A stretch of 64,000 bases of DNA from the NCBI RefSeq assembly GCF_964213995.1, contig NC_135830.1, positions 6,510,001 to 6,574,000 of the forward strand, in the 5' to 3' direction. The notes beneath the pieces are model-generated. The model was not told the origin of the DNA. It was given only the letters and a program-made list of their open reading frames with translations, and ran no database searches. The DNA comes from Mustelus asterias (taxonomy: Eukaryota). Below are positions 173 through 64,000 of this stretch, piece by piece. Each line of letters begins with the position of its first letter. Position 1 is the first letter of the stretch. The translations under genes were made by a program, and so were the position numbers.

Positions 173-1223
173 GGCAGAAGAACAGTCCTGGCATGTTTGT
201 AGCCTGTGCTTCATCAGAGAACTGGGCATTTATATAAAGCTGTCCCTGGAAAACTTTCTCCAGTCTCCCAGTAAGTGAAATATATTCCTGATCTGCGTTC
301 CTTATTTAACTTCAGACGAGAAGGAACAACATACTGTTAGATGTGAGTTATTGCCTGTCCGAATCTACACCAGGCACAGTTGCTGTCCAAGGACCTTTCT
401 GATGTCCTGGTTGTGCTGTTCGGTGATTTGCTTTCTAAAGGACCATTTTTCACTTCATTGGTTAAATTCAATCCCAGACTTTTATACATTTTGTTTTTGA
501 TATAGAACCCAGTGACACAGACTCACTGCCTTGGGATCCTTTTCAGTTAACTGGCAGGATGAACAGCCCATAATGAGCGGCATTACTGCACGCCTGTCGG
601 TATTCTCCACCTCGGCCGGCACACTATGTTCCAAGTTATTTACTGAGCTGATATCACTTGGGGTACAGTTATGAATTCTGATTTCCCAGACAGGCTCCCC
701 ATTGATTTCAACAAGGGCAGGGACAGCAATCCAAACGTTTGATATAAAAACCTGACTCTGTAAAGCTAGAAAGAAACTAATGTCTCAGGTAAAGGCCCCA
801 AAAACATTTGACCGAATGCGCTGAGGTTTATGTGCTTTTCCTGACGCTGTGCCTCACAGCATAGTAATCGGCCGTTCCATCCTCCGCGCTCATGCCGCCT
901 ATACTGAGGAACCAGACTCGTCAACAGCCATCACAAATGTTGCTGAGATTTTCCCTTTCCCAGTGCTAATTTTTTTTAGTGCTAATTACCCATCCTGGGT
1001 GCTCTGCCTATTTCTGCTGATGCAATTGCATAGTTGATCTGATTATTCACAATCTAACTGCGCTAAACCTTCTTCTTGCACAGTTAACGGCACCAGAGAC
1101 TGAGTTACTGCACATATTCCGCCTGTAAAAGTAGATAAATAAGAGTCCAAGGTTAAAGAGGAACGATATATCTGTATGTGTGCGTAAGTTTCCATTTTAC
1201 AACCTGTCCATATATAAATACAT

Positions 1224-1554
1224 GGGCGGCACGGTAGCACAGTGGTTAGCACTGCTGCTTCACAGCTCCAGGGACCTGGGTTCGATTCCCGGCTCGGGTC
1301 ATTGTCTGTGTGGAGTTTGCACATTCTCCTCGTGTCTGCGTGGGTTTCCTCCGGGTGCTCCGGTTTCCTCCCACTGTCCAAAGATGTGCGGGTTAGGTTG
1401 ATTGGCCATGCTAAAATTGCCCCTTAGTGTTCTGAGATGTGTAGATTAGCGGGTAAATATGTAGGGATATGGGGGTAGGGCCTGGGTGGGATTGTGATCG
1501 GTGCAGACTCGATGGGCCGAATGGCCTCTTTCTGTTCTGTATGATTTCTATGAT
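1224..1554 (+). mobile_element. tRNA-derived V-SINE (HE1-like)
   Basis: Box A/B head (GGTTCGATTCCC), V-core GTGTGGAGTTTGCACATTCTCC...GGGTTTCCTCCGGGTGCTCCGG, CR1-type tail GGGCCGAATGGCCT...TTTCTATGAT. Confidence 0.9.
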
Positions 1555-1852
1555 ATATATATTATATACATATATACCGTGAACTATATTAAATCAGATT
1601 ACAATCTATTGTCGTCAATCTGCTAAACTGTGTTAATGAACATAATTCTTCACTTACTGTCACATAGCGCCGCCAGTCTGTCTGACTGAGTATCTCAGTG
1701 AATGGGAATGGGATGATTGAGACACAATGCAGGGACCAGCCCCATTGTGACCTCACTCAGGAACACATCCCTTTTGGCTTCGGCGTTGGACCCACGTGAC
1801 CTTCTAATGAGCATGCAGGGATTCGGTGCCCTCTGCTGGCAGATTCTGTTCA

Positions 1853-2372
1853 CAGTAAGAAATCTCACAACACCAGGTTAAAGTCCAATGGGTTTATTTG
1901 GTAGCAAACACCATAAGCTTTCGGAGCGCTGCTCCTTCGTCAGATGGAGTGGAAATGTGCTCTCAAACAGTGCACAGAGACACAAAATCAAGTTACAGAA
2001 TACTGATTAGAATGCGAATCCCTACAGCCAACCAGATCTTAAAGATGGAGACAATGTGGGTGGAGGGACTTGTCTGCTAATTTTTTTTTACTGCTAATTA
2101 CCCAACCTGGGGGCTCTGCCTATTTCTGCATCTGCATTGTCTGCATCTTTAAGACCTGGCTGGCTGTAGGGATTCGCATTCTAATCAGTATTCTGTAACT
2201 TGATTTTGTGTCTCTGTGCACTGTTTGAGAGCACATTTCCACTCCATCCGACGAAGGAGCAGCGCTCCGAAAGCTTATGGTGTTTGCTACCAAATAAACC
2301 TGTTGAACTTTAACCTGGTGTTGTGAGACTTCTTACTGTGTTCACCCCAGTCCAACGCCGGCATCTCCACAT
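1853..2372. mobile_element. Penelope-like element remnant with inverted pLTR arms and minimal hammerhead motifs
   Basis: ~205-bp inverted arms (1851-2056 / ~2136-2340); CTGACGA-stem-GAAA core; 13-bp TSD CAGATTCTGTTCA at 1840-1852 and 2373-2385. Confidence 0.85.
1913..1947 (-). ncRNA. Minimal type I hammerhead ribozyme motif (Penelope-associated)
   Basis: Minus strand reads CCAT-CTGACGA-AGGAGC-AGC-GCTCC-GAAA-GCTT-ATGG: stem I CCAT/ATGG, stem II GGAGC/GCTCC, palindromic AGCT stem III; plus-strand partner at ~2244-2280 has the variant core CCGACGA. Confidence 0.7.
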
Positions 2373-2545
2373 CAGATTCTGTTCAATCAGGTTTGGAATG
2401 GGGTCATTGAGAACATTTTGGGGCTTGTTGATTTACATACCTCACCAAATATCTTCTTCCGAGAATTCTGAATTGGAATTGGTGAGACTGAATTTTATTA
2501 TTTGAAGCCAATTGCATGTCATATGATGAGGTTGGCAGCAATTAA

Positions 2546-2576
2546 CCAATCAATAGGGGCCCGGATATGACTCAAC
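2546..2576 (+). promoter_or_regulatory. V promoter: CCAAT plus ETS/AP-1 composite (CCGGATATGACTCA)
   Basis: Conserved ~80 bp upstream of ATG in paralogues (26320-26350), decayed near 15510. Confidence 0.6.
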
Positions 2577-2653
2577 TTCTTCCCAACTCTTGACGAAAAC
2601 AACTTCAGCTTTCAACCCTTTCTGGTCACATCCACTGCGAGCGCTCTGCAAAC

Positions 2654-61171: not shown

Positions 61172-61532
61172 TATCGTTGTCACTCTATAAAACGGAGTTG
61201 GATATTTGCAGACACCCGTTTGAAACCTCACCCTGTATATTTTGCTGCCGTGTCTCGGGATGCTGTCACTGCATTTCCCTGTGTCCGCGGTGGTGCTGTG
61301 GGGTTGGCAGCTGGTGAACTGGCTGCAAGTGAATGGATTCACCCCGAGCTGGGTTCACTCAGTGTTCTGATAGGGCGAATGGTTTCCTAGTTAGACACGT
61401 GGGAAGAGATTTTATAACCGGAAACATAGGTTTGTTATTGTTTTCTTTAAATCCGGCTTCAATTTTACACTTCAGACTCACTCTGATCACAATGTTTGCC
61501 TAACGCTCTGTTATGTTGAGCGAGCCTCTGAC

Positions 61533-62471
61533 AGTTTTTGTACAGGTTCAGCCCAGCTCTGTCTCTGTGGGACTCAGTGCGCAGTAATAAACCCCGGAGT
61601 CTGCCAGCTCTGTTTTAGACACTTTCAGCGGGACGGTGCGGGTTGTATCATTGAGCTCCGCTAAAAAAACGGTCCCCTGAGGATCTCCCTGTGTTTCCGC
61701 TGTATTTATTTGCCTGCAGCGGGAACTCCATGGATCCGCTGGGATACTGACGGTACCAGAACAAGTATAGAGTGTTCGCACTTGTAGTTGAATAATTACA
61801 GAACAACCCGACATTGACTCCTTCAGTGACGGCGACTGCAGGTGTCTGTGAAACAGAATCTCCTCGACAATGCCCTGTAAAAACACGAAGGAATATTAAG
61901 TTACACAATGCGCCTGCACTCTGTTTCCCCCAGGACTTGCTCATCAACCTGAACATAACCTCAGAGAGAAATCAGACAGCTGAACAGAAGCATATTTTTC
62001 ACAGTTCAGTGGCTGGAACGGGAAGGTGCTGGCGGTGATTAAATAAAACTTCCAACATAAACATTCTGTACTTTCTAACGAGATCAGTTCCTCGCCTTCA
62101 TTCCCTGTGACTGGAACGGGAAATTGCTCAGTGTCTGTGTGCTTGAAAGTCTAGTGATTGTCAAATCATTTTTTGTTATCAGAGAAGTTTGAATTTCGGC
62201 CTAACTCGTCCTCTCTCATTCCCTGAGGGGAAATGTGTCGACTGCCATCAAACAGTGTTCAGTGTTGAAATCAGCGAGATCCGAATGACTATTCGAAGTT
62301 GGGATCAATCCATTCCTCTGATCACCTCCCCTCACCCCCTTCCACTGAACGAACTGCCCGACAGAATATAGTGTGTGGTAAACATGCGAAACACAGTGTT
62401 GAGCAACTTGTGAACTTACCAGTTAAAAGAGCTGCTGCTGTGATGAATAAATATAGGGTAACAGGAAACAT
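61533..62471 (-). pseudogene. Family A V pseudogene (mirror of 2654-3592)
   Basis: Same T7 frameshift and 21-bp spacer. Confidence 0.92.
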
Positions 62472-62752
62472 GTTTGCAGAGCGCTCGCAGTGGATGTGAC
62501 CAGAAAGGGTTGAAAGCTGAAGTTGTTTTCGTCAAGAGTTGGGAAGAAGTTGAGTCATATCCGGGCCCCTATTGATTGGTTCATTGCTGCCAACCTCATC
62601 ATATGACATGCAATTGGCTTCAAATAATAAAATTCAGTCTCACCAATTCCAATTCAGAATTCTCGGAAGAAGATATTTGGTGAGGTATGTAAATCAACAA
62701 GCCCCAAAATGTTCTCAATGACCCCATTCCAAACCTGATTGAACAGAATCTG

Positions 62753-63272
62753 ATGTGGAGATGCCGGCGTTGGACTGGGGTGAACACAGTAAGAAGTCTC
62801 ACAACACCAGGTTAAAGTCCAACAGGTTTATTTGGTAGCAAACACCATAAGCTTTCGGAGCGCTGCTCCTTCGTCGGATGGAGTGGAAATGTGCTCTCAA
62901 ACAGTGCACAGAGACACAAAATCAAGTTACAGAATACCGATTAGAATGTGAATCCCTACAGCCAGCCAGGTCTTAAAGATGCAGACAATGCAGATGCAGA
63001 AATAGGCAGAGCCCCCAGGATGGGTAATTAGCAGTAAAAAAAAATTAGCAGACAAGTCCCTCCACCCACATTGTCTCCATCTTTAAGATCTGGCTGGCTG
63101 TTGGGATTCGCATTCTAATCAGTATTCTGTAACTTGATTTTGTGTCTCTGTGCACTGTTTGAGAGCACATTTTCACTCCATCTGACGAAGGAGCAGCGCT
63201 CCGAAAGCTTATGGTGTTTGCTACCAAATAAACCCATTGGACTTTAACCTGGTGTTGTGAGACTTCTTACTG
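62753..63272. mobile_element. Penelope-like inverted remnant with hammerhead motifs (mirror)
   Basis: CCATCTGACGAAGGAGCAGCGCTCCGAAAGCTTATGG at 63178-63214. Confidence 0.85.
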
Positions 63273-63570
63273 TGAACAGAATCTGCCAGCAGAGGGCACC
63301 GAATCCCTGCATGCTCATTAGAAGGTCACGTGGGTCCAACGCCGAAGCCAAAAGGGATGAGTTCCTGAGTGAGGTCACAATGGGGCTGGTCCCTGCATTG
63401 TGTCTCAATCATCCCATTCCCATTCACTGAGATACTCAGTCAGACAGACTGGCGGCGCTATGTGACAGTAAGTGAAGAATTATGTTCATTAACACAGTTT
63501 AGCAGATTGACGACAATAGATTGTAATCTGATTTAATATAGTTCACGGTATATATGTATATAATATATAT

Positions 63571-63909
63571 ATCATAGAAATCATAGAAACCCTACAGTAC
63601 AGAAAGAGGCCATTCGGCCCATCGAGTCTGCACCGACCACAATCCCACCCAGGCCCTACCCCCATATCCACCCGCTAATCCCTCTAACCTACACATCTCA
63701 GAACACTAAGGGGCAATTTTAGCATGGCCAATCAACCTAACCCGCACATCTTTGGACAGTGGGAGGAAACCGGAGCACCCGGAGGAAACCCACGCAGACA
63801 CGAGGAGAATGTGCAAACTCCACACAGACAGTGACCCGAGCCGGGAATCGAACCCAGGTCCCTGGAGCTGTGAAGCAGCAGTGCTAACCACTGTGCTACC
63901 GTGCCGCCC
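63571..63909 (-). mobile_element. HE1-like SINE (mirror of 1224-1554)
   Basis: Same site, different internal indels. Confidence 0.9.
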
Positions 63910-64000
63910 ATGTATTTATATATGGACAGGTTGTAAAATGGAAACTTACGCACACATACAGATATATCGTTCCTCTTTAACCTTGGACTCTTATTTATCT

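Follow-up and report, generated by a model that had tools for sequence, protein, structure and literature searches.

A 30-kb inverted duplication of T cell receptor alpha/delta V genes in a genome assembly of the shark Mustelus asterias, probably formed by template switching

A stretch of 64,000 nucleotides from the shark Mustelus asterias (the window; NC_135830.1, C71:6,510,001-6,574,000) contains a large palindrome that carries T cell receptor (TCR) variable (V) genes of the alpha/delta type in both orientations. We think it probable that the palindrome is a real germline segmental duplication of a 30-kb TCR alpha/delta V block in inverted orientation, its outer edge formed by homology-driven template switching and its inner edge by a join at 5 bp of microhomology. 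For analysis of the flanks, 100 kb was added on either side of the window, giving 264 kb in total. Positions are those of the window, negative positions lie upstream of its start, and contig labels denote contigs of one assembly.

Self-comparison of the window by Basic Local Alignment Search Tool (BLAST) aligned 8660-27405 with 54578-35835 (18,758 bp at 99.48% identity, well above chance), 5472-9146 with 57999-54330 (99.48%), and 1133-5473 with 64000-59652 (98.85%). With the flanks included, the palindrome comprises two arms and a spacer, and its right arm holds a piece of a long interspersed nuclear element (LINE) and an expanded tandem array:

Left arm: -2682 to 27405, plus strand, 30,088 bp, from self-BLAST and flanks; it starts 2,682 bp upstream of the window and occupies 1-27405 within it
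Spacer: 27406 to 35834, unstranded, 8,429 bp, the gap between the arms
Right arm, inverted: 35835 to 67808, minus strand, 31,974 bp, from self-BLAST and flanks; it occupies 35835-64000 within the window
CR1-type LINE piece: 58000 to 59652, minus strand, 1,654 bp, 5′-truncated, within a broken V, right arm only
233-bp tandem array: 54092 to 54811, unstranded, 3.1 units; the left counterpart at 8660-9146 has 2.1 units

The palindrome exceeds the original prediction, made from the window alone, of arms of at least 26 kb: the arms measure 30.1 and 32.0 kb around a spacer of 8.4 kb and show 177 differences in the 29,789 ungapped columns of the four-way alignment (0.59%). The predicted mirror symmetry stands; the predicted left bound of 1133 is the mirror image of the window's end, and the true arm start is at -2682. 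Segmental duplications are defined as copies >1 kb long and >90% identical, inverted ones having both copies on one chromosome, and the arms are 30-32 kb long, 99.4% identical, and contiguous, with no N across the 264 kb. The LINE piece and the third 233-bp unit are insertions found in the right arm only and, as had been proposed, argue against an artifact produced by fold-back of a single molecule. A real duplication is further supported by the right arm having its own LINE piece and by the longest perfect stretch shared by the arms being 2.6 kb. We assign the LINEs described here as CR1-type to that family on the basis of their tails and translated frames rather than by matching to a library.

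The two ends of the right arm differ in character. The inner end is a derived junction:

Right inner junction: 35835 to 35839, unstranded, 5-bp microhomology that joins a cut LINE reverse-transcriptase fragment to the arm

It lies 15 bp past the nonamer of the recombination signal sequence (RSS) of the V gene V35888, which is kept whole. The LINE cut at 35839 in the palindrome continues intact in contig C123. Copy searches listed 40 or 41 matches per query, to which all counts of matches refer, and a query across 35835 was matched at full length by one of 40 listed matches. At its outer edge the right arm adjoins a young CR1-type LINE at the latter's 3′ tail, and this edge is common to six of 41 listed matches (C71, C353, C105, C157, C726, and C89). 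In C105, C157, C726, and C89 the arm-like sequence is just ~6 kb long, with 96.4-96.9% identity to the left arm. In its outer 1.4 kb the right arm differs from C105 by 0.21% and from the left arm by 3.7%. Across 87 diagnostic sites it belongs with the paralog lineage as far as -1255 and with the left lineage starting at -832. The switch zone at -1255 to -832 thus marks a chimeric repeat, placing one junction inside homologous repeats as is characteristic of template switching, and the short microhomology of 5 bp at 35835-35839 is a second such characteristic. C353 switches lineage later than the right arm, between -339 and -187.

Other copies of the arm were found outside the window. A unique arm piece had four matches of at least 99% among 40 listed: the left arm, the right arm, C353, and C210. 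Pairwise distances were 0.59% (left-right), 0.54% (left-C353), 0.49% (left-C210), 0.57% (right-C353), 0.56% (right-C210), and 0.79% (C353-C210), so that four distinct copies, 0.49-0.79% apart, are present, more than two alleles of one locus would give. In both C210 and C353 the arm runs into spacer base 27406 and onward through the intact LINE, and the inner end of the arm is extended in the same way by loose contig ends from two other organisms (runs X5 and X8); this shared continuity identifies the left junction as ancestral. Upstream, C210 has the left flank, and C353 carries 13 kb of the right flank. No second arm was found in all 387 kb of C353 or in the first 330 of the 607 kb of C210. 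The spacer is itself a mosaic, following C353 to 31627 (C210 is the odd copy at 40 of 45 sites) and a separate paralog lineage from ~31800. Its segment 32700-34000 has no other copy >94% among 41 listed matches, which means that a displaced true continuation is absent from the contigs found.

Over 28 kb C105 has 99.2% identity to the right flank, after which the two diverge. Because its agreement stops there, we rejected C105 as a whole allele of the right side, and likewise C353, which matches the flank for 13 kb only; no contig fits as a parental allele across the whole region, which bears on any reading of a duplication-triplication-duplication (DUP-TRP-DUP) copy pattern. Elsewhere in C353, a 50-kb block (C353:57,712-108,071) has 98-99% identity to C210 and is flanked on either side by copies, inverted to each other, of the same young LINE; outside the block, identity to C210 falls to 91-97%.

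The ancestral unit is therefore flank, arm, and spacer, with the intact LINE farther on, and the right arm begins at the LINE cut and ends in a different paralogous flank, the switch lying within a stretch ~96.5% like the left flank. Replication or repair may have jumped between older inverted paralogs, after which ~29 kb would have been copied backwards and rejoined via microhomology. This could have happened in a single event, or a larger inverted duplication could have lost its middle to a later deletion, and since then the copies would have exchanged sequence mutually and with paralogs elsewhere. Several points weigh against such a duplication. The right junction was found once, in one assembly; there are many near-identical unplaced copies of C71 sequence, and both haplotypes may partly be present; the 0.6% difference between the arms could be the allelic distance here; and C105 and C353 track the right flank too briefly to serve as a parental allele. 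Because C353 switches lineage elsewhere, an origin shared by all the copies is an assumption.

One alternative is an assembly artifact, in which two haplotypes or paralogs were falsely joined at 35835-35839 through a chimeric read and no chromosome carries the palindrome. Uniqueness of the junction in the assembly and the many duplicate unplaced contigs are in keeping with it, as is a very different second contig with joining (J) and constant (C) alpha segments, described below, which suggests that both haplotypes were partly kept. We consider an artifact unlikely, however, given that there is no gap, that four distinct arm copies exist and differences between the arms are dense, and that the displaced continuation of neither side was found in the searches made; moreover, with just 5 bp in common, the two sides could not be joined by overlap unless a read spanned the junction. 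Among contigs of six runs from apparent relatives (the best V contig has 12 mismatches in 269 letters), none listed bridges 35835-35839, a result that in contigs cannot show absence. A different origin for the inner junction would be cleavage by RAG, in germline DNA or in that of a lymphocyte that found its way into the assembly. In its favor, a V RSS is 15 bp away from the break, and one strand of the microhomology has the letters CAC. The idea is nevertheless hardly credible: V35888 retains its whole RSS, and the two junction CAC sites score as background at -9.6 and -4.5, whereas the locus's own RSSs score at least 11.0. With these sites at the 34th and 60th percentile of the 2,122 CAC sites in the window, a cryptic-RSS origin was rejected.

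The remaining alternative concerns exchange between the arms. Left-right differences are clustered (15 in 6401-19300 and 109 outside, a squared-gap statistic reached by none of 5,000 permutations), and informative sites pair the copies in two ways. In the outer 1.4 kb, 47 of 48 sites pair the left arm with C210 and the right arm with C353; in the arm interior, 44 of 55 show the reverse (left with C353, right with C210), six agree with the flanks, and five unite the two arms. Judged by these sites, the four arm copies are mosaics. The swap between flank and interior pairing would be explained by a crossover near the outer edge, which between inverted copies means inversion of the interior, and we read it as a hint of a past crossover.

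In an actively homogenized, flip-flopping palindrome, crossovers between the arms would invert the interior, and C210 and C353 would each be half of the other haplotype, with the conformation reversed and a much longer middle. The pairing swap, the clustering of differences, and the spacer at 27406-31627, which also follows C353, are all compatible with this, but the two arms are united at just five of 55 sites, and, where the arms differ least, C210 lies almost as near to the arm as the opposite arm does (0.17% vs. 0.12%). Furthermore, C210 and C353 would have to share a chromosome and face each other, neither has a second arm in the lengths searched, and the far flanks of C353 misfit a simple allele. 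A palindrome of this kind thus appears improbable. The gene conversion between arms that had been predicted is not supported, since the arms, 0.59% apart, are 0.49-0.57% from outside copies and so are not each other's closest copy, and homogenization between them as a special feature was rejected on the same figures and on the five uniting sites. As for the predicted flip-flop polymorphism of the spacer, its flipped form was not seen, the right junction being found in one of 40 listed matches, and the pairing swap leaves room for an inversion in the past.

Each arm carries four V genes with open leader and V exons and RSS spacers of 23 or 24 bp, as well as broken V segments and a tRNA gene, and the spacer has V genes of its own:

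V12169, TCR alpha/delta, left copy: 12131 to 12621, minus strand; leader, V exon, and 23-RSS
V51079, mirror of V12169, 2 aa different: 50627 to 51117, plus strand; open leader and V exon
V17612, left copy: 17145 to 17651, plus strand; open, 24-bp RSS spacer, YSC in place of YYC
Mirror of V17612, identical protein: 45598 to 46104, minus strand; open leader and V exon
V21141, left copy: 20636 to 21180, plus strand; open, 24-bp RSS spacer
Mirror of V21141, identical protein: 42069 to 42613, minus strand; open leader and V exon
V27352, left copy: 26426 to 27390, plus strand; open, 23-RSS with non-consensus heptamer end
V35888, mirror of V27352: 35850 to 36817, minus strand; differs by 3 aa in V and by 1 aa in the leader
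Spacer V gene (V at 28882): 28844 to 29345, minus strand; open, with leader and 23-RSS; C353 and C210 have copies
Broken V, spacer: 33259 to 33626, minus strand
Three broken V segments per arm: 3229 to 5639, mirrored at 57832-61896, unstranded
tRNA-Glu(CTC), left copy: 5743 to 5816, minus strand
tRNA-Glu(CTC), right copy, identical to left: 57655 to 57728, plus strand

The genes show the hallmarks of TCR alpha/delta V genes: a leader exon, a V-set exon with C-W-YxC, an RSS with a spacer of 23(+/-1) bp, and J segments with 12-RSS and a C-alpha exon in cis. The top PDB matches of V27352 are mostly TCR alpha chains, plus antibody fragments and one V-delta, and its four database relatives are all from cartilaginous fish. 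The original prediction was right that these are TCR V genes, here of the alpha/delta type, that four open ones and a tRNA gene are mirrored, and that the spacer holds an intact V gene. All four look intact; several RSSs are off consensus, and function of the V genes is a prediction.

J and C segments were located by an RSS pattern search; a search with Pfam PF09291 for C-alpha gave no match. On the same contig, 11.8 Mb downstream of the window, 32 J segments with 12-RSS, all on the plus strand, lie at C71:18.37-18.42 Mb, along with a constant exon for which an identical database protein is named TCR alpha chain-like. Scans of C71:18.28-18.48 Mb found no D segment, C-delta, or V. By the established rule, V genes on the plus strand relative to this cluster would join by deletion and those on the minus strand by inversion. 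The duplication gives four V genes at doubled dose, each potentially open to both deletional and inversional joining to J-alpha segments 11.8 Mb away. The prediction that both joining modes are available stands insofar as each of the four V genes occurs in both orientations relative to the J cluster; it does not stand as a new mode for the locus, one arm alone having V12169 on the minus strand and the other three genes on the plus strand, so that mixed orientation predates the duplication.

V modules related to those of the window occur across at least 11 Mb of C71 (4.86-16.1 Mb; J-alpha is at 18.37 Mb) and on many unplaced contigs. A second J-alpha/C-alpha cluster lies at C546:138,000-240,400, with 135 J segments in 189 kb against 32 on C71; its C-alpha exon has 78% protein identity to that of C71, and DNA blocks are 80-84% alike. 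It represents either a second locus for TCR-alpha or an allele that has diverged deeply, and divergent alleles of TCR constant regions occur in fish.

Smaller features were also seen. Each arm contains a 206-bp inverted repeat, 96% alike by self-BLAST, at 1851-2340 and mirrored at 62785-63274. The spacer has a tRNA-Arg(ACG)-like gene at 30864-30938 with an imperfect acceptor stem, probably a pseudogene, and a degenerate V-like relic with stops and frame changes at 30300-30620 on the minus strand. A short V-like stub at 790-851, minus strand, has a heptamer and a nonamer-like motif at 11-bp spacing.

On a larger scale, C71:4.86-5.06 Mb is mirrored at 10.65-10.85 Mb, two 50-kb samples aligning in inverted orientation at 99.0-99.9% with V genes. 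This suggests a mirrored segment of ~200 kb or more with copies 5.6 Mb apart; it could alternatively be a scaffolded haplotype duplicate. From this mirror and the 28 kb shared with C105, the region reads as a patchwork of duplications. We offer as a tentative, rather doubtful generalization that repeated inverted duplication, together with crossover between inverted copies, enlarges and rearranges the shark TCR alpha/delta V field (>13 Mb), making it a large-scale counterpart of the avian IGH architecture, with V genes 12 Mb from J-alpha used via both deletion and inversion. If so, the palindrome and its arm single-nucleotide polymorphisms (SNPs) would be a built-in test of the effect of orientation alone on V use: pairs with coding SNPs (V12169 and V27352), together with repertoire reads, could reveal a preference for deletion or inversion over ~12 Mb. 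Inverted V-gene duplications (human IGK, avian IGH) and mixed V orientation in sharks were already known, and the importance of the present case is modest; what it contributes is the resolved junction anatomy in a TCR locus of a cartilaginous fish and four near-identical V pairs differing mainly in orientation. As copy-number patchworks, shark TCR loci may be over- or undercounted in assemblies.

No paper on palindromes in shark TCR loci was found in the literature searched, with subscription journals and bioRxiv supplements outside its scope. In the great white shark, TCR alpha/delta V genes likewise lie on both strands, from 8.2 to 17.1 Mb, ~9 Mb (PMC12227049, Table S1), and "palindrom" has no match in the parts of that source consulted. 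In salmon TRA/TRD, V blocks in one orientation are used about as often as those in the other (PMC8559430). The consulted parts of both sources differ from the present account in describing neither palindromes nor their junctions.

Human DUP-TRP/INV-DUP (INV, inversion) rearrangements, attributed to template switching primed by inverted repeats, resemble the palindrome in having one junction in homologous repeats, which yields a chimeric repeat, and another with short microhomology, 1-9 bp at junction 2 in 14 of 24 cases (PMC11293582). They differ in that their starting repeats are 99.9% alike, as against ~96.5-99% here, where the DUP-TRP-DUP pattern is unreadable without a parental allele. In human IGK, the textbook precedent, the proximal and distal V segments likewise form inverted duplicate V blocks in an antigen-receptor locus, with signatures of gene conversion and an inversion haplotype (PMC11327106); here the locus is shark TCR alpha/delta, with 30-kb arms around an 8.4-kb spacer, one of several overlapping duplications, in one assembly. 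Avian IGH carries many short inverted duplications, known to its authors from no other vertebrate IGH locus, in a paper whose main text has no match for "shark," "cartilaginous," or "TCR" (bioRxiv 10.64898/2026.09.05.749481). As here, they put V genes in both orientations, and they vary between haplotypes. We found one long inverted pair within 264 kb and one more in samples of C71. The avian events are dense, extend across nearly all V genes, have a mean length of 2.8 kb, and supply pseudogenes as donors in somatic conversion, whereas the palindrome is ten times longer and carries open, RSS-bearing V genes.

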